Sequence record: MN850564.1
Strand: one strand, 5' to 3'
DNA length: 64,000 nt
Source: Escherichia phage humlepung
Translations under genes and position numbers: made by a program
The notes under the pieces: generated by a model
Seen by the model: only the letters and a program-made list of their open reading frames with translations
Told to the model about the DNA's origin: nothing
The model's database searches: none
Shown here: one piece after another, positions 57,332 to 64,000 of the stretch
Layout: every line of letters starts with the position of its first letter
Position numbering within the stretch: position 1 is the first letter of the stretch

Positions 57332-57405
57332 GAAACTTCGTAGCATATTCACAATAGACTAAGCCTTTCTTATCTGGTAAATTTTTTCAGGTAAGGAGGG
57401 CTTTT

Positions 57406-57585
57406 TCATTTTAGAATTGTGCAGGTAGAGTTATGTAGAGAAATCTATAGAGAAAATTTTGAACTCCAAAGAGAAAATTCATTTTCAAACTGTGCAGGTA
57501 ATCTCCAAAGAGCTTTTTCATTTTCAAAACGTGCAGACCCCGCTCAGGTCGGGCAAGAAAAATCATTTTAGAATTGTGCAGGTAG
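57406..57585 (+). repeat. iteron-like direct repeats (4 copies of ~23 bp TCATTTT(A/C)(G/A)AA(T/C)(T/C)GTGCAGGTA)
   Basis: Copies at 57406, 57479, 57518, 57563; copies 1 and 4 identical; CTCCAAAGAG also repeated. Confidence 0.6.
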
Positions 57586-57600
57586 GTTTTTATAGACAGC

Positions 57601-57640
57601 CAGCCCAACCCCTCTCCCCCTCTTACTCCCCCTCTCCCCA
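57601..57640 (+). repeat. polypyrimidine C-rich tract
   Basis: CAGCCCAACCCCTCTCCCCCTCTTACTCCCCCTCTCCCC, between iterons and strong promoter. Confidence 0.5.
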
Positions 57641-57760: not shown

Positions 57761-57852
57761 TTGACTCTTTGAACGTGGTTATCTAATATTTACATCAACG
57801 GGGAGGGAATGACCTTCCCCACTAAATAAAATCCTAAACTGGAGATTCAAAA
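57761..57852 (+). promoter_or_regulatory. cassette type 1 (promoter TTGACT-N17-TAATAT, 5-prime hairpin, conserved leader with GGAG)
   Basis: Hairpin GGGGAGGGAATGACCTTCCCC at 57800-57820; leader ACTAAATAAAATCCTAAACTGGAGATTCAAAAATG. Confidence 0.65.
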
Positions 57853-58236
57853 ATGGCATACCGCGCACCGAAATTCATCAATAAAGAAAATTTTCGTAAT
57901 GTATTAGAGAAGGTGCTTGATGAAAAATTTAACGGCAAAATAATTGTTGTTCACGCATACAATTTCAAGTATGATATCAACGGGAATAAAATCAACCATT
58001 ACACGGCAACTATGTTAGATGGCAATCTTTCAAGTGAAAAAGCCGTACTGAATGCACTTGCCGGACGTGGAAAAAACCTGATAAGATGCGATAAGAGACG
58101 TTATCAGGGTGGCGCATATGGTTACGATGATGCTATTTATCATCTTGAAAATATGGGCTATCAAGTAGAAAAAGCTGGAGTATCACAAATCATCGGCAGT
58201 GATGGCTATGTAACAATCTTCAAAATTAACAAATAA
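57853..58236 (+). CDS. cassette gene A, hypothetical
   Basis: 127 aa; starts ATG GCA in conserved leader. Confidence 0.55.
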   Translation: MAYRAPKFINKENFRNVLEKVLDEKFNGKIIVVHAYNFKYDINGNKINHYTATMLDGNLSSEKAVLNALAGRGKNLIRCDKRRYQGGAYGYDDAIYHLENMGYQVEKAGVSQIIGSDGYVTIFKINK

Positions 58237-58322
58237 AGTACTTTACAGGGGGCTTATAGTTCGATAAAGTAAGCCCCAGATAAAGAGCTTTACCACTAAA
58301 TCCTAAATTGGAGAACTTAAAA
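58234..58322 (+). repeat. cassette type 2 (palindrome TAAAGTACTTTA, hairpin, conserved leader)
   Basis: Palindrome begins with upstream stop codon; hairpin GGGGCTTATAGTTCGATAAAGTAAGCCCC without U-tract; shared leader/SD. Confidence 0.6.
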
Positions 58323-58613
58323 ATGGCTATTATCAAAAACGTTGTAATTCCCGCAAAAACTCGTGATGACGCTCGCATCATGGCGAAAAAGTTAGGCGGG
58401 AAAGTGGTTGACAATGGAAAACAATCTGCTGTAAGATGGGGTGTGAAGGCTGATAAACAGTTGAAGTTAAAAAATTCACCGATAAACCTTTTTACATGTG
58501 TAAACACTATCGGGAAGACAAATGTATACACGAAAAAAGCATATATTAGACGCGTAGCATTAACATCCCCCATTCGTACAATGAGAAGTTATGCAAAGCT
58601 GAAAATTAACTGA
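58323..58613 (+). CDS. cassette gene B, small basic protein
   Basis: ATG 58323 (track start is TTG); 96 aa; MAII N-terminus. Confidence 0.5.
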   Translation: MAIIKNVVIPAKTRDDARIMAKKLGGKVVDNGKQSAVRWGVKADKQLKLKNSPINLFTCVNTIGKTNVYTKKAYIRRVALTSPIRTMRSYAKLKIN

Positions 58614-58700
58614 TAAAGTACTTTACAGGGGGCTTAAAAGTTGGTATCTTAAGCCCCAGATAAAGAGCTTTACCACTAAATCCTAAACTGGAGATTCAAA
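58614..58700 (+). repeat. cassette type 2
   Basis: TAAAGTACTTTA palindrome; hairpin GGGGCTTAA...TTAAGCCCC with changed loop; conserved leader. Confidence 0.6.
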
Positions 58701-59213
58701 ATGAAAACTGTAGACGCTACTTTTGAAGTTGTAAAAGAAAAATTCACTATTATTTATGAAGCGGTAAATTGCTACGAAGCAAGCCATAATCTTGATAATT
58801 GGAAGTTTACAGATGACCATCAAGGCGGCGTGACTGTTAAAAACCCTAACTGTCAGCGTAACGATTTTAAATATGCAATCCCTTTAAATTATAGCCTTAA
58901 ACAGCTTTCTAGTGACTATGCAAAACAAGGCCGGGAAAATCCATCAAAAGAGGCTTACGCAAGCTTACAGAAAGAACTAGAAAGAGATTTAGAGGCTTCA
59001 GAGTACAACCTTGCCGCGAAAGTTGTCGATGCAAACGGTAACACGGTTTTAGAAAGTTTTTATCTTGGTTATGCTTTCGATTGGTGCTATAGTGACGGTG
59101 ATGATTTAGAGGAAAGACTAAAAGAAGAGGTGAGCAATTCAGACGCAGAAACTGAAGTATTAGAACGTTTGGAATCGTTGAAAGACTCAGTGATGAATAT
59201 CTTTAAGAACTAA
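58701..59213 (+). CDS. cassette gene C, acidic hypothetical protein
   Basis: 170 aa; acidic C-terminal half. Confidence 0.5.
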   Translation: MKTVDATFEVVKEKFTIIYEAVNCYEASHNLDNWKFTDDHQGGVTVKNPNCQRNDFKYAIPLNYSLKQLSSDYAKQGRENPSKEAYASLQKELERDLEASEYNLAAKVVDANGNTVLESFYLGYAFDWCYSDGDDLEERLKEEVSNSDAETEVLERLESLKDSVMNIFKN

Positions 59214-59305
59214 ATAGATTTCTTTACACGGGGTTATCAAGCTGGTAAGATAGCCCCAGATAAAGAGATTTATCAAATAAAGCCCTTAAACTAGGAGATT
59301 CTAAA
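59214..59305 (+). repeat. cassette type 2 (diverged copy)
   Basis: CTTTACACGGGGTTATC...GATAGCCCCAGATAAAGAG; hairpin retained with a G-U pair. Confidence 0.45.
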
Positions 59306-59602
59306 ATGAAATTATCAAATCAAGTGCGTGAAAATCTGAGCAAATTACTCAACAAAATTGATTTTATCGAGACATCAAGAAATAATCATGATGTTATGGA
59401 ATGGTTGCACGGCAAAATAAAAGGCCGTCGCGTAGTGATTTGCTTATGGAATAGTTGCAGGGAGTATAAAAAACCTGTATTGCAAGTAAATATTTATGAT
59501 GATACTTTTAAAAGTCCAGTAAAGTCTAAAAGTGACTTATTAGAATCCTATGAGATAACTGTAAATGGCAAAGTATCACGTAAAGAGGAAACACCATGTT
59601 AA
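59306..59602 (+). CDS. cassette gene D, hypothetical
   Basis: 98 aa. Confidence 0.5.
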   Translation: MKLSNQVRENLSKLLNKIDFIETSRNNHDVMEWLHGKIKGRRVVICLWNSCREYKKPVLQVNIYDDTFKSPVKSKSDLLESYEITVNGKVSRKEETPC

Positions 59603-59928
59603 TGACTGGCATCACCGCAATCCTTGCCATTTTCGCGCTATATAAGGCATATAAAGCCTATAATCTAGCAAATAAGGCAATCACGCAACAGGTCAATAAT
59701 AGCTTTGTAATGAGCTTTCTGGAGCGTTTAAGTGATGAACAAATAAAACGGTTAGAAATGAGCTTCAGATTTCAATCAAAAACTTATCAAATCAGCGACA
59801 TTTTCAAAGATGATTTTCAGTTAGTCGATGATTATAATTCTCTGATAAATGCTTTAAATGTCAGTGACTTAAAAGACTACTACGCTGTAATTGTTCAAGA
59901 ATTGAGCAAACGAAAAAATTCCTCTTGA
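59596..59928 (+). CDS. cassette gene E, membrane-anchored protein
   Basis: 110 aa; N-terminal TM segment ITAILAIFALY; coupled to gene D. Confidence 0.45.
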   Translation: MLMTGITAILAIFALYKAYKAYNLANKAITQQVNNSFVMSFLERLSDEQIKRLEMSFRFQSKTYQISDIFKDDFQLVDDYNSLINALNVSDLKDYYAVIVQELSKRKNSS

Positions 59929-60015
59929 TTTTGGTTTTTAAAACAAGTAAATTACTAATCAACGGGAGGTAATAACCTCCCCACTAAGTAAAGTCCTTAA
60001 ACTAGGAGATTCAAA
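59925..60015 (+). promoter_or_regulatory. cassette type 1 (TTGATT-N17-TAAATT, hairpin, leader)
   Basis: Hairpin GGGAGGTAATAACCTCCC (compensatory changes on both arms); conserved leader. Confidence 0.6.
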
Positions 60016-60288
60016 ATGTACACTACTAACAACGGTCGCACCTTAAACGTAACCATTCGTCACTATGTGAACGGTGTAATGCACTTCGAAGATTTACAAG
60101 CCGAACAACATATCTTAGATTGGCAACTTGCAGGACTACAAAAAACTGCTACAGGATACGGGAAAAAGATTCCAACCAGTTGGAAAGTATACTACGAAGG
60201 CCGTTTGCGCAGAATTTATCAGGATGTGCAAAGCAATAGCGCATCGAGTTACATCATAGTAAAAGGTAAAAAGCTGCATTTAGTGTAA
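60016..60288 (+). CDS. cassette gene F, hypothetical
   Basis: 90 aa. Confidence 0.5.
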   Translation: MYTTNNGRTLNVTIRHYVNGVMHFEDLQAEQHILDWQLAGLQKTATGYGKKIPTSWKVYYEGRLRRIYQDVQSNSASSYIIVKGKKLHLV

Positions 60289-60374
60289 AGTACTTTACAG
60301 GGGGCTTATAGTTCGATAAAGTAAGCCCCAGATAAAGAGCTTTACCACTAAATCCTAAATTGGAGAACTTAAAA
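60286..60374 (+). repeat. cassette type 2
   Basis: Near-identical to copy at 58234 (stop TAA embedded in palindrome). Confidence 0.6.
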
Positions 60375-60779
60375 ATGGCTATTAATAACCGTGAATTATC
60401 AATCTTAAAAGCACGTTTGACCGTTAACCGGATTAATGTTATCACGTCATCAGCGCCTGATGAGACATTGCACAACATTATCGGGAAGATTCAAAGCGTT
60501 ATCTTAGACGTTGAAAACGTAAAAAAATCATTGGCTGACGTTGCATCAGGTATCACGCTAGACGGCGCACAATATGAAATGGCTGACATGTTAGGCAAAT
60601 CAAAGATAATGAATAAAGAGCTTGATTTAAAAATGTTTCGATTTGCTGTTAAAGTATGGCTATCCGTCGAGTATGACGCTAATTTTGCAATCGCTGATTT
60701 CTTTGCCACTTGGTTACAACGTAATTTGACAAATCACGATTTTCGTGATGTCTGTGATGCAATTTATGCAGAACTCTAA
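60375..60779 (+). CDS. cassette gene G, hypothetical
   Basis: ATG 60375 (track start TTG); 134 aa; MAIN N-terminus. Confidence 0.5.
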   Translation: MAINNRELSILKARLTVNRINVITSSAPDETLHNIIGKIQSVILDVENVKKSLADVASGITLDGAQYEMADMLGKSKIMNKELDLKMFRFAVKVWLSVEYDANFAIADFFATWLQRNLTNHDFRDVCDAIYAEL

Positions 60780-60787
60780 AAATTTTG

Positions 60788-60879
60788 TTGACACCGGTTT
60801 TTAGATAGATTAAATTACACATCAACGGGGAGGGAGTGACCTTCCCCACTAAGTAAAGTCCTAAACTGGAGATTCTAAA
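60788..60879 (+). promoter_or_regulatory. cassette type 1 (TTGACA-N17-TAAATT, hairpin, leader)
   Basis: Hairpin GGGGAGGGAGTGACCTTCCCC. Confidence 0.65.
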
Positions 60880-61083
60880 ATGGCTATTATTAACGGCTTA
60901 AACATTGAAACTACACACATCAAAGATATCAAAGTTGGCGATATAGTCCTTTCCCACGGCGTAGAAAAAACTGTCACTACAAAGGATATCAAAGAGGATT
61001 CTTTCATGGGTAGGACTCTCTTCGGTGATTCTTATTGCTTAGGGTATCTTGCAGTCTTAAAAGTTGTCAAAAATAACAAATAA
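60880..61083 (+). CDS. cassette gene H, small hypothetical
   Basis: 67 aa; MAII N-terminus. Confidence 0.5.
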   Translation: MAIINGLNIETTHIKDIKVGDIVLSHGVEKTVTTKDIKEDSFMGRTLFGDSYCLGYLAVLKVVKNNK

Positions 61084-61169
61084 AGTACTTTACAAGGGGC
61101 TTATAGTTCGATAAAGTAAGCCCCAGATAAAGAGCTTTACCACTAAATCCTAAACTGGAGATTCAAAAA
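61081..61169 (+). repeat. cassette type 2
   Basis: TAAAGTACTTTACAAGGGGCTTATAGTTCGATAAAGTAAGCCCC...leader. Confidence 0.6.
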
Positions 61170-61712
61170 ATGAAATGCTTTCACGGTACTACTCAAGAAA
61201 ACTTTATCAACCTGATTAATAATGGTGATAAGCCATCAGGTGCATGGAATTGTTCGGATATGGACGGCAATTTTTACGTGTACCCAGAAAATAAAATCTA
61301 TGGCGACGATGAGGAAGAGATAATCTCTGAAGGTATCCAGCAAGCGTTAGGTAATGCCACTATTACGGCCGCTTTCCAGATGAAAACCCAAAATATTGTT
61401 ATCTTAGAACTTGATATCCCAGAGGATGACCTAAATGACGATTATTCTTGTGATAATATGTCTGGCGTAGCAAGTTTTACAGAATACTTCGATTTAAATT
61501 GGATTAAAAAGGTTTACGTAACAGAGTTTAACGCTATGTATTCGCCTTTTTGTCTTCCTTCATTGGATAACCCAAATTTAAATTATCTTGATGAGTCTCT
61601 GGAGCTTCTTGCTAAAAGTGTCCAACAGTCGGACAGTATTCAGGTTTTTTGTGACATCATGGACACACTAACGGGAAACATCGCAGAAGAGGATTTAAAG
61701 AGCTTTTTCTAA
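61170..61712 (+). CDS. cassette gene I, acidic hypothetical protein
   Basis: 180 aa. Confidence 0.5.
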   Translation: MKCFHGTTQENFINLINNGDKPSGAWNCSDMDGNFYVYPENKIYGDDEEEIISEGIQQALGNATITAAFQMKTQNIVILELDIPEDDLNDDYSCDNMSGVASFTEYFDLNWIKKVYVTEFNAMYSPFCLPSLDNPNLNYLDESLELLAKSVQQSDSIQVFCDIMDTLTGNIAEEDLKSFF

Positions 61713-61744
61713 AAACCTATGCAATCGCCTTATAAACACTGATT

Positions 61745-61764
61745 AGCCCCTCACAGGGGCTTTT
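61745..61764 (+). terminator. rho-independent terminator
   Basis: GCCCC-TCACA-GGGGC followed by TTTT. Confidence 0.5.
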
Positions 61765-61778
61765 AAGAGGCTTAAATC

Positions 61779-62012
61779 ATGCTTACAACCGTTTATCTTA
61801 TCCTTTCTATTTGTAATGGTCATTCATGTGATTTTAAAGGGCTTGAGGAGTTTACAGGAAGTAAAGAAAATGCTGTTCAGGTCTGTCAGATAGCAAGGCA
61901 AGACTACCCCGCCAGTGATGACATACAATGTTACTTTAAGACAGAAGATGAAGATGGTATCTATTTCGATAGTGTAGACGGTCAATATGAAATAATTATA
62001 GAAAAAGACTAG
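61779..62012 (+). CDS. cassette gene J, small Cys-containing protein
   Basis: 77 aa; RBS AAGAGG. Confidence 0.45.
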   Translation: MLTTVYLILSICNGHSCDFKGLEEFTGSKENAVQVCQIARQDYPASDDIQCYFKTEDEDGIYFDSVDGQYEIIIEKD

Positions 62013-62102
62013 ACAAGCCTGATAAAAATCTGTAAATTACTAATCAACGGGGAGGGAATGACCTTCCCCACTAAACAAAATCCTAAACTGGAGATTCAAA
62101 AA
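62010..62102 (+). promoter_or_regulatory. cassette type 1 (TAGACA-N17-TAAATT, hairpin, leader)
   Basis: Hairpin GGGGAGGGAATGACCTTCCCC at 62049-62069. Confidence 0.6.
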
Positions 62103-62444
62103 ATGGCTTATGTAACCGTAATTACCGATAAAGCTGGCGCATCTTGGTCAACTCAGGTTAGTGATAAGATGTCGCCTATGCAGTGCCTAAAATACTTTGA
62201 ACAGTGGAACAAAGGCGAGGACACAAGCCCCTTTCACGTAATGCAGATTATTCATGTAGACAATGAAGGGAAGAAAACAACTCTGAATAGTGAGTACTAC
62301 GCAAGCCGTTTTGAAACGAGAAGTAAAGCAATGAAGCTCTTACGTGAGGCCGGATATGGTCACATTGCCGCGATAATCTGGGATGACCTTCTAAAAAGTC
62401 AACGTATCAGCTATGTAAAGCCTGAAAAAATATTCATCAGTTAA
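62103..62444 (+). CDS. cassette gene K, hypothetical
   Basis: ATG 62103 (track ORF starts inside the hairpin at 62058); 113 aa. Confidence 0.5.
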   Translation: MAYVTVITDKAGASWSTQVSDKMSPMQCLKYFEQWNKGEDTSPFHVMQIIHVDNEGKKTTLNSEYYASRFETRSKAMKLLREAGYGHIAAIIWDDLLKSQRISYVKPEKIFIS

Positions 62445-62573
62445 TCAATAACTTACAAAAAACTTTTAAAAAAGTGTTGACAATACCCCTTGACATTGGT
62501 AACTTTGTTCGAGGGGGTTTATCTAAAAGGGATTCACTTAAAAGATTCTTTATAGATAAGCTTAAAAAATTGC

Positions 62574-62663
62574 TTGCAATCAGCTATCAAAACAAGTAAA
62601 TTACTAATCAACGGGAGGGATGACCTCCCCACTAAATAAAATCCTTAAACTAGGAGAGTCAAA
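62574..62663 (+). promoter_or_regulatory. cassette type 1 (TTGCAA-N17-TAAATT, hairpin, leader)
   Basis: Hairpin GGGAGGGATGACCTCCCC; additional TTGACA motifs at 62475-62495 upstream. Confidence 0.6.
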
Positions 62664-63194
62664 ATGAACAAGTTTAAAGCTATCAACTTCATTCGTTCAA
62701 ATGCTGTAATGTCAAAACCTGTAAAAGACACATACGAATTTCGCTGCAATGGGGTACACTTTGCAACCATCACTAAGTCAGAAAACGGGGCTTATTACGT
62801 ACATCGTCGTAATGTTGCAACCGTTGTAGTCTCTCACTTTATGCAAGCTGTAGCGGAGTTATTACCGTTATTCTTAGAGATTTATCTAGGTGAGTGTAAA
62901 AACGTTCGTAACCACGTTAAAAACCTTTTAAACGGTTATAAAATGGCTTATGAACGTTCTATCAAGTCCTTGAACAAGTTCTATAAATCCCCTGTAAATA
63001 CTGTTTCAATGGCTTACACTGTAAGCGGTGAGTTGGTTAGCCTCTTCGAAGTAGAAGAAATTGAACTATATGACTCACGTCCTAGCGGTTACTCTAAGAC
63101 ACTGGGAGAAGGATTATCTTTCAATATCAAGAACTTAGAAAAAACTTTAAAAGATATTGAAAAAGATATTGACGAGACAATCAAAAGTCTGTAA
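62664..63194 (+). CDS. cassette gene L, hypothetical
   Basis: 176 aa. Confidence 0.5.
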   Translation: MNKFKAINFIRSNAVMSKPVKDTYEFRCNGVHFATITKSENGAYYVHRRNVATVVVSHFMQAVAELLPLFLEIYLGECKNVRNHVKNLLNGYKMAYERSIKSLNKFYKSPVNTVSMAYTVSGELVSLFEVEEIELYDSRPSGYSKTLGEGLSFNIKNLEKTLKDIEKDIDETIKSL

Positions 63195-63260
63195 ATTGTC
63201 AATCAACGGGGAGGGAATGACCTTCCCCACTAAATGAAGTCCTAAACTGGAGATTCTAAA
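63169..63260 (+). promoter_or_regulatory. cassette type 1 (TTGACG-N17-TAAATT, hairpin, leader); -35 lies inside the 3-prime end of gene L
   Basis: Hairpin GGGGAGGGAATGACCTTCCCC at 63208-63228. Confidence 0.6.
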
Positions 63261-63509
63261 ATGGCTACTATCCGCGCAACTGTTAACGAATTCGGCTTCT
63301 ACTCTCTGGACGTTAAATTTGACCTTGTAGGTACTGATAACACCTTTGAAATGGTGAAAGGCCTTATCAGCCAGACCATCAGTGACTACAACCCCTCTGA
63401 TGAATTCTGGAAAGAAACAAAACAGGAAGTTCTCAAAGAGGGTTATACATACCACTACTGGGGTGAAAAAATTGTCTCCCTGTACTACGACAAAAAAGGC
63501 ACTAACTAA
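63261..63509 (+). CDS. cassette gene M, hypothetical
   Basis: 82 aa; MATI N-terminus. Confidence 0.5.
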   Translation: MATIRATVNEFGFYSLDVKFDLVGTDNTFEMVKGLISQTISDYNPSDEFWKETKQEVLKEGYTYHYWGEKIVSLYYDKKGTN

Positions 63510-63547
63510 ACGCCGCAACGGGGCTAAATAGCCCCAGATACCTTTAC

Positions 63548-63575
63548 AGCCCCTTTCCCATAGGGGCTTTTTTAC
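63548..63575 (+). terminator. rho-independent terminator closing the cassette array
   Basis: AGCCCC...GGGGCT followed by T6; preceded by a type-2-like hairpin GGGGCTAAATAGCCCCAGATA. Confidence 0.55.
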
Positions 63576-64000
63576 GTCTTATCAAATCCCTTATACAACC
63601 CTTTCCCTTTCCTTTCCAGAATCTTATCAGACCTTAAAAAGCAATAACTCTATAGTCTACTCTATAGCCTTTTATCAAATCAACTTAAATATAAGCCCAT
63701 AACCCGAAAGGGAAGGGCAACCGTTTAAACGCTCTATAAAGCTCTATAACAGCCTTATCAACCTAACTTAAGGGATTGCATTAACTCACCCTAAAAAGCC
63801 CTTTATAAAGCTTCCCAGAGACTTAAAAGAATCTTATAAGGGTGTAAGCTTTATTATCTCGTTAGCTATCTTGTGAACTACTAAACAAGCCCCTTGATAG
63901 TAACTGAAAAGTATGTTATAGGGGCTTTAAAGTTACTTTGAAGTGGCTTAAAAGTTACGTAAATGCTAGCCCCCTTAACATTTTCTTAACAATTTCTTAA
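63576..64000. repeat. non-coding repeat-rich region (CTTATCA x5, CTCTATA x4, AAGTTAC x2)
   Basis: No ORF of 60 aa or more on either strand; short direct repeats and pyrimidine-rich tracts. Confidence 0.5.

Follow-up and report, generated by a model that had tools for sequence, protein, structure and literature searches.

What does a short hairpin do that recurs, just downstream of the promoter, before one small gene after another? This question is raised by a stretch of 64,000 nucleotides (nt) from Escherichia phage humlepung (sequence record MN850564.1; hereafter the window), a Felixounavirus, that is, a Felix O1-like myophage of the Ounavirinae. Six copies of a repeated early-gene cassette, called type 1 here, each contain a G-run/C-run hairpin. 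We think that the hairpin is best read, by analogy, as the stem-loop part of a promoter/stem-loop/Shine-Dalgarno (SD) cassette resembling the promoter-early stem-loop (PeSL) elements of T4-like phages. As to its function, we give an even chance to the reading that this module is a generic sense-strand RNA structuring the ends of messages. The hairpin is real but is probably an ordinary mRNA-end structure, and nothing in it would surprise a specialist. The context makes it useful: transcription in Felix O1-like phages is essentially unmapped despite their use in Salmonella and E. coli typing and biocontrol, and the Felix O1 genome paper described temporal control as unknown (PMC3185647).

The hairpin has a fixed place in a promoter cassette

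The elements follow one another in the same order in the type 1 cassettes: an A-rich tract, a -35 box, a 17-nt spacer, a -10 box, four variable bases, the invariant ATCAAC, the hairpin, ACTAA, an A/U-rich spacer, TAAACT(A)GGAG and ATG. In the window the -35 boxes include TTGACA, TTGATT, TTGCAA and TAGACA, the -10 boxes are TAAATT or TAATAT, and exactly 10 nt separate the -10 box from the hairpin in all six cassettes. The canonical 21-mer GGGGAGGGAATGACCTTCCCC is found at 57800, 62049 and 63208, and a copy with one A-to-G mismatch in the loop at 60827 (four matches, with none expected by chance). The hairpins GGGAGGTAATAACCTCCC at 59964 and GGGAGGGATGACCTCCC at 62613 are shorter variants. Predicted RNA folds of the window hairpins reach -12.3 to -15.2 kcal/mol (z -2.8 to -3.8 against shuffles), and the hairpin dominates the fold ensemble of the whole leader. 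The same promoter-plus-hairpin layout was sought across the 64 kb window, and outside the array cassettes no promoter-like site has it.

Relatives were collected by scanning IMG/VR with the flanking sequence, leaving the stem unconstrained (32 loci on about 20 Felix-like contigs), and by adding the annotated records AYO145A, wV8, FO1a, Sf17, ESh21 and Andreotti; a sequence profile then gave about 170 type 1 cassettes. The comparison of hairpins below covers about 160 of them, drawn from some 35 relatives. A metagenome scan with ATCAAC N{12,40} CCTAAACTGGAG used too loose a pattern: nearly all of its 120 loci were chance matches and only a few were Felix-like (L084, L105, L114, L116, L128, L146).

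The position of the hairpin is maintained in these relatives. Of 122 distinct cassettes, 108 have 10 nt between -10 and stem, and NNNNATCAAC stands directly before the stem in 151 of 151; between stem and GGAG there are 12 to 23 nt, or 33 in a single outlier. As the spacing to the -10 box is fixed and that to GGAG is loose, the hairpin is tied to the promoter side. Sigma-70-type boxes were recognised in silico in all cassettes (TTGACA-like, 17 nt, then TAAATT, TAAAGT or TAATAT), and the AT-rich tract upstream of -35 has the consensus aAAAAa over 151 cassettes. The usual gap between the -10 box and +1 is 7-8 nt, with a pyrimidine/purine preference at -1/+1, and for these reasons the predicted start is an A of CAAC. 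RNA made by the host polymerase would then begin with AAC- or AC- and enter the stem at about +3/+4; the cassette geometry puts the predicted start 7-9 nt after the -10 box, leaving 1-3 unpaired nt.

More distant members of the subfamily have comparable elements. Hafnia phage Zyzzx (unclassified Ounavirinae; L159, 10200-16340) shows a -10 box, ATCGAAAC and then GGGGAACGACCCC three times, and Erwinia phage Ea21-4 (Kolesnikvirus; L160, 9600-16220) shows ATC followed by GGTTCAGCACTGAACC once. A G/C hairpin near the start motif (ATCGAAAC or GTCGAAAC) is thus a habit of the whole subfamily, with its exact position shifting.

Pairing is kept in relatives while sequence changes

The sequence-only reading had argued, from the window alone, that changes on both arms preserve pairing and therefore reveal selection on structure rather than on sequence. 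All six hairpins exist and fold where it placed them, save that the copy given at 59963 starts at 59964, but the compensatory changes are not there. Among the six copies there are three stem types and no more. At 60827 the change is confined to the loop, and the copies at 59964 and 62613 are each one G shorter in the 5' G-run and one T shorter in the 3' arm than the canonical hairpin. RNAfold gives -15.2 kcal/mol for the canonical hairpin, -11.5 for the G deletion alone, -16.3 for the T deletion alone and -12.6 for both; because the hairpin stays stable after either deletion by itself, the differences are not compensatory. Moreover, the 59964 and 62613 copies have a common upstream promoter sequence, and so probably represent one lineage or sub-family instead of two independent events. 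By themselves, the six window copies show no more than an inverted repeat inside a repeated cassette.

Support for the argument comes from the related phages. The segment after ATCAAC occurs there in 45 distinct forms with 23 arm combinations; every form folds, and in all 45 no more than one base separates ATCAAC from the hairpin. Long arms include GGGGAGGG/CCTTCCCC, GGGAGG/CCTCCC, GGGGAGG-GAAA or GAGA-CTTCCCC, GGGGAAG/CTTCCCC and GGGGGA/TCCCCC, and short ones GGGGC/GCCCC, GGGGT/GCCCC, GGGC/GCCC and GGGA/TCCC. When 5' and 3' halves were swapped among hairpins, native combinations folded at a mean of -9.52 kcal/mol against -7.60 +/- 0.42 for permuted ones (0 of 20000 permutations). Before the same downstream gene, the hairpin class differs between phages: the MLYQRELM slot has GGGA/TCCC, GGGC/GCCC or GGGGT/GCCCC.

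Covariation, which the sequence-only reading had offered as one of its checks, does appear once homologues are added, and is modest. With a covariance model built from the six window copies, 150 hits were aligned; 91.8% of cells are paired and three pairs show double-sided change. Double-sided cells number 13, against 2.2 +/- 1.4 in shuffles (0 of 500), and the covariation score is 0.123 against 0.085, falling to 0.02-0.056 with partners slid. These shuffle statistics overstate significance, because the covariation rests on a small number of independent events (roughly 5-8), the outer G-C pairs are invariant and the cassettes within a genome look homogenised, a sign of concerted evolution. The fifth pair contributes most (A-U 75, G.U 14, C-G 7, G-C 2). 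In this alignment the GGGAGG variants are out of register, which produces 16 false A.C cells. A register-corrected, outer-anchored alignment of 43 distinct hairpins yields 98.5% paired cells, five double-sided pairs and a score of 0.258 against 0.098, an upper bound because the alignment was fitted to each sequence's own fold and register shifts were counted as double-sided changes. The two alignments bracket the truth, and we take the signal to be genuine but modest.

The same data bear on the possibility that the hairpin has no function of its own and is an inverted repeat carried along in a cassette that is spread or homogenised by recombination or gene conversion. The cassettes are indeed repeats with gene-content breakpoints inside them, and their outer G-C pairs never vary. 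In addition, in L013 (a Salmonella phage SP116-like contig) and at other loci, leader variants such as ACTAAACAAAGTCC are common to several cassettes of one genome and not to orthologous cassettes elsewhere, which suggests gene conversion among cassettes. However, unrelated stem sequences in the same slot all pair, arms fit their own partners better than swapped ones, and stem disruptions fall mainly at terminal or innermost pairs while loops vary freely. We therefore regard this explanation as improbable.

Loops vary in sequence (AATGA, GATAA, GAAA, GAGA, AAGCAA, AACA, AAGATAAA) and in length, from 4 to 9 nt, even within single genomes. This freedom argues for a generic structural role. It also bears on the earlier suggestion of a sequence-specific regulator site, which is unlikely given that stem, loop sequence and loop length all change inside single genomes. 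In the RNA version of that idea, a phage RNA-binding regulator would recognise the hairpin, either for boxB/N-like antitermination or for selective decay. The element is promoter-proximal and its loops are purine-rich, some of GNRA type (GAAA, GAGA) and others GNRA-like pentaloops (GAUAA, GAUGA), but loop sequence and size are unconserved even in one genome, no boxA-like partner was seen and Rfam has no match, so that we hold it to be very improbable. The Rfam comparison gave no match at gathering score in the whole window, and between 57600 and 63700 only two chance-level hits (E = 0.4 and 0.6). A boxB/nut-type hairpin in particular was rejected, since a conserved loop and a boxA partner would be expected.

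Two other sequence features of the hairpin were considered. The 5' arm GGGAGGU (for instance at 59964-59981) is a perfect SD, and the 3' arm ACCUCCC resembles the anti-SD tail of 16S rRNA. This mimicry of SD and anti-SD (GGAGGU/ACCUCC) is not present in the GGGGC/GCCCC, GGGA/TCCC and GGGC/GCCC classes, and is probably incidental, a consequence of one arm being rich in purines and the other in pyrimidines. A mini open reading frame (ORF) within the hairpin (ATG ACC TTC CCC ACT AAA TAA, with GGAGG before it) was set aside, as many variants (loops GATAA, AATAA, GAAA) have no ATG and the SD-like run stands just 2 nt from that codon.

The structure probably belongs to the sense-strand RNA

All 93 wobble cells are G.U with G on the 5' arm and T (U in the RNA) on the 3' arm. 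The canonical hairpin folds at -15.2 kcal/mol in the sense strand and at -11.8 in the antisense strand (3.4 weaker), although the difference between strands is marginal among distinct sequences (p = 0.05). Together with the free variation of the loops, the strand bias of the wobbles fits a sense-strand RNA hairpin without a sequence-specific reader, and speaks against a duplex operator or a cruciform.

A DNA-level element might be an operator, bound at +4 to +24 by a dimeric repressor, or else a cruciform or a hot spot of recombination. It would be consistent with an imperfect palindrome overlapping the start region, with indel breakpoints in the cassettes and with PeSL crossovers mapped in or near the stem-loop (PMC2839356). 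However, the wobble always lies on the sense strand, which means an A.C mismatch on the other strand, and within one genome the half-sites differ in sequence as well as in spacing (loops of 4-9 nt). We give this possibility little credence.

Structured message ends as the favoured reading

We favour a role at message ends because of the fixed position near the start, the sense-strand wobbles, the indifference to sequence and the need of RppH and RNase E for unpaired 5' ends. Both enzymes require single-stranded 5' ends, so that secondary structure there stabilises mRNA (PMC3997798). The hairpin would be the first structure in each cassette's own mRNA and could restrain RppH and RNase E in their 5'-end-dependent attack on cassette-initiated messages. 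In transcripts reading through from upstream it would also sit between cistrons, where cleavage in the A/U-rich leader could leave a protective 3' hairpin on the upstream message. Its job would be generic and independent of sequence. Of the three functions proposed in the sequence-only reading, the 5' stabilising stem-loop is thus the most plausible, and it hinges on the predicted transcription start.

Short stable hairpins at the start of a message are found elsewhere, as in the 5' stem-loop of the T7 gene 10 leader. Intergenic hairpins that could define or protect mRNA ends in an early array transcribed by the host polymerase also recall the early RNase III sites of T7 and intercistronic stabilisers of the REP (repetitive extragenic palindromic) or malE-malF kind. 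The 5' stabilising stem-loops of the E. coli mRNAs ompA (hp1) and papA share with the type 1 hairpin its small size and stability, its predicted position at the message start without a required sequence, and the A/U-rich leader and SD that follow. Stem-loops of this kind lie within about 0-2 nt of the transcript's 5' end and prolong mRNA half-life in a manner that depends on RppH and RNase E. The start of the type 1 messages, however, is only predicted, and the 2-3 unpaired nt that it would leave are borderline for RppH and RNase E (PMC8833179).

Several points weigh against this reading, beginning with the limits of the covariation given above. RppH and RNase E need at least 2 unpaired 5' nt and prefer at least 3, and RppH favours a purine at position 2 (PMC8833179); the predicted AAC or AC ends, with 2-3 unpaired nt and a purine at position 2, could be acceptable to both enzymes, and protection may be weak. 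The idea that the hairpin is an obstacle to RNase E scanning was abandoned, as a plain stem-loop proved a poor obstacle, with negligible protection in the system studied (PMC11194081). In Ea21-4, several hairpins overlap the -10 box and end just before GTCGAAAC, and one clear sigma-70 cassette (upstream of 9724) has no hairpin. Because of the hairpin positions in Ea21-4, and because the hairpins of a second cassette type (type 2, below) lie inside a promoter-like region, a role at the message's own 5' end cannot be the sole function of such hairpins. Finally, our literature search found no transcript-start or RNA-seq data for Felix O1-like phages.

A further alternative would make the hairpin a cis-acting RNA that modifies its polymerase in a put-like manner or recruits a phage factor, so that cassette-started and upstream-derived transcripts behave differently at later hairpins; or else the crossover site of a recombination system that shuffles promoter-plus-ORFan units between Felix O1-like phages. 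We judge this alternative to be quite improbable.

A PeSL-like cassette outside the T4-like phages

PeSLs were described in the T4-like phages RB49/phi1, PST and nt-1 (Arbiol et al. 2010, PMC2839356; Comeau et al. 2014, PMC4122927). Each has a sigma-70 promoter preceded by an AT-rich tract, a polyG/polyC stem-loop that contains G-T pairs and can occupy any of five positions, and then an SD and an ATG; PeSLs precede ORFans in hyperplastic regions and mediate modular shuffling, and experiments have shown a strong promoter, an attenuating stem-loop and mini-circles (PMC2839356). The Felix cassettes have the same AT-rich tract, sigma-70-type promoter, G-run/C-run stem-loop with G-T pairs, SD and ATG. 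They are likewise clustered in many copies before small ORFans, contain inter-genome indel breakpoints and vary, as a group, in the position of the stem-loop relative to the promoter. In contrast to PeSLs, the type 1 stem-loop stands at a fixed place just past the predicted start with no U-tract after it, and the cassettes belong to the Ounavirinae lineage, with no detectable sequence homology to the T4-type elements. A blastn search with the cassette matched Felix O1-like phages only. As judged from sequence, the Felix cassettes carry every feature of a PeSL and are analogues, not homologues.

This likeness leads to the main rival of the message-end reading, a PeSL-type attenuator or boundary. 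According to it, the hairpin acts on transcripts derived from upstream, by attenuating them, stopping read-through or marking a processing boundary, and its presence in the cassette's own transcript is incidental. The architecture matches the PeSLs of RB49 and phi1, whose stem-loop position is variable and includes the place just downstream of -10, and one PeSL stem-loop cut lacZ expression about as much as rrnB T1 (PMC2839356). Moreover, the position of the hairpin relative to the start motif varies in Ounavirinae and in type 2 cassettes, and read-through is expected because most type 1 promoters have no terminator upstream. However, the stem is followed by ACUAAAUAAAA instead of a U-tract, a terminator scan finds nothing at these sites, and a pure intergenic barrier would not need the rigid distance to the -10 box. 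We consider this rival possible, if unlikely. An ordinary intrinsic terminator fits poorly, since the stem runs into ACTAAATAAAA, which has no U-tract, and the scan lists none of these sites.

Some of these sequences had been recorded before. The Felix O1 genome paper noted 39-bp and 57-bp direct repeats, assigned them no role and left them out of its promoter list (PMC3185647), and the wV8 GenBank record labels them DR_1 to DR_9. The 39-bp repeat TTGACACTGGTTTTTAGATAGATTAAATTACACATCAAC corresponds to the type 1 promoter up to the hairpin (ATCAAC), and the 57-bp repeat to the type 2 element. What is new is the reading of these direct repeats as putative promoters with a hairpin. Such a reading offers a concrete early-promoter map and would extend the PeSL idea past T4-like phages to a second myovirus lineage. 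It would also explain the sites of gene gain and loss in the variable early region, and the hairpin itself would be a compact natural part for 5' untranslated regions and a candidate mRNA stabiliser.

Gene-content junctions relative to AYO145A, wV8 and FO1a (blastn breakpoints) fall inside cassettes, which fits modular shuffling mediated by them. In comparisons with L001, L154 and L158, the junction stretches are 58706-59222, 60885-62033, 62079-62105 and 63191-63252; in AYO145A the cassette of 63191-63252 is present twice, with one extra ORF plus cassette (269 bp) in between.

Type 2 cassettes and RNase III

Five further cassettes of the same region are of type 2 (Table 1). Each folds as a long hairpin of about 20 bp with interruptions, made up of UAAAGU/AGCUUUA, CUUUA/UAAAG, a 3x3 internal loop and GGGGCUUAU/AUAAGCCCC (z -4.2 to -4.7). 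The structure is kept in Ea21-4, with double-sided changes in 4 of 20 pairs (G-C to U-A). The element also fits a promoter pattern (TTTACA, 17 nt, TAAAGT), placing the hairpin inside a promoter-like region. By its predicted fold, the type 2 element looks like an RNase III-type processing site.

The type 1 hairpin had also been proposed as an RNase III site. T7 has RNase III sites between the genes of its early region, and the type 1 hairpin is similarly intergenic in a multi-gene early region. However, its stem has only 6-8 bp and the flanks add no pairs in read-through RNA, where about two helical turns (roughly 20 bp) would be expected, and the neighbouring type 2 elements, with 20 pairs and an internal loop, fit far better; the likeness to the T7 sites applies to them. 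For the type 1 hairpin, RNase III processing is a negligible prospect.

Cassette coordinates and the gene array

Table 1. Positions of the type 1 and type 2 cassette elements in the window.
Feature	Coordinates	Strand	Remarks
Cassette 1 promoter	57761..57789	+	TTGACT, 17 nt, TAATAT
Cassette 1 10-nt segment	57790..57799	+	TTACATCAAC, with invariant ATCAAC; predicted start at an A of CAAC
Cassette 1 hairpin	57800..57820	+	GGGGAGGG-AATGA-CCTTCCCC; 8 bp including one G.U
Cassette 1 leader and ATG	57821..57855	+	ACTAAATAAAATCCTAAACTGGAGATTCAAAA; ATG at 57853
Cassette 2 promoter	59925..59953	+	TTGATT, 17 nt, TAAATT
Cassette 2 hairpin	59964..59981	+	GGGAGGT-AATA-ACCTCCC; 7 bp; next C unpaired
Cassette 2 leader, AGGAG, ATG	59982..60018	+	ATG at 60016
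Cassette 3 promoter	60788..60816	+	TTGACA, 17 nt, TAAATT
Cassette 3 hairpin	60827..60847	+	GGGGAGGG-AGTGA-CCTTCCCC; loop is the sole difference from canonical
Cassette 3 leader, GGAG, ATG	60848..60882	+	ATG at 60880
Cassette 4 promoter	62010..62038	+	TAGACA, 17 nt, TAAATT
Cassette 4 hairpin	62049..62069	+	Canonical sequence
Cassette 4 leader, GGAG, ATG	62070..62105	+	Probable true ATG at 62103; AYO145A orf025 has 113 aa
Cassette 5 promoter	62574..62602	+	TTGCAA, 17 nt, TAAATT
Cassette 5 hairpin	62613..62629	+	GGGAGG-GATGA-CCTCCC; 6 bp; next C unpaired
Cassette 5 leader, AGGAG, ATG	62630..62666	+	ATG at 62664
Cassette 6 promoter	63169..63197	+	TTGACG, 17 nt, TAAATT
Cassette 6 hairpin	63208..63228	+	Canonical sequence
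Cassette 6 leader, GGAG, ATG	63229..63263	+	ATG at 63261
Type 2 cassette	58234-58292		
Type 2 cassette	58614-58672		
Type 2 cassette	59215-59275		
Type 2 cassette	60286-60344		
Type 2 cassette	61081-61139		

The region gave 257 matches to phage records at 80-97% identity, nearly all of them Felixounavirus or related Ounavirinae from Escherichia, Salmonella, Shigella and Citrobacter. Six type 1 and five type 2 cassettes are packed into 5.8 kb of this variable region, before ORFans. In the annotated relative vB_EcoM_AYO145A the counterpart of the array is orf015-orf028, a set of small hypothetical genes with rIIA/rIIB and a macro-domain phosphatase upstream, ending at a terminator that is followed by about 1.5 kb of non-coding DNA. 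None of the 10 array proteins tested (10/10) belongs to a Pfam family.

For the cassette 4 gene, the program-made ORF starts at 62058, an ATG within the hairpin loop. The frame from there is open only through the leader ACTAAACAAA in place of ACTAAATAAA, and the true start is most likely the ATG after GGAG, which yields a protein as long as that of AYO145A orf025.

Repeats flank the array on both sides. Directly upstream of the first cassette, the non-coding stretch 57391-57581 holds a direct repeat of about 34 nt that ends in TGTGCAG and occurs four times, at spacings of 39-73 nt; a C-rich tract CCCAACCCCTCTCCCCCTCTTACTCCCCCTCTCCCC lies 3' of these copies at about 57603-57640. After the array, the non-coding stretch 63580-64000 contains short tandem and dispersed repeats (ACTCTATAGTCT, CTTAACATTTT and TTATCAAATC, two copies each); its counterpart in relatives has no annotated genes for about 1.5 kb. 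Between the last array gene and these repeats, at 63517-63575, lies the hairpin CAAC-GGGGCTAAATAGCCCC-AGATA, a hybrid whose front is of type 1 and whose back is of type 2; 3' of it comes a canonical intrinsic terminator with a T-run (63548-63568).

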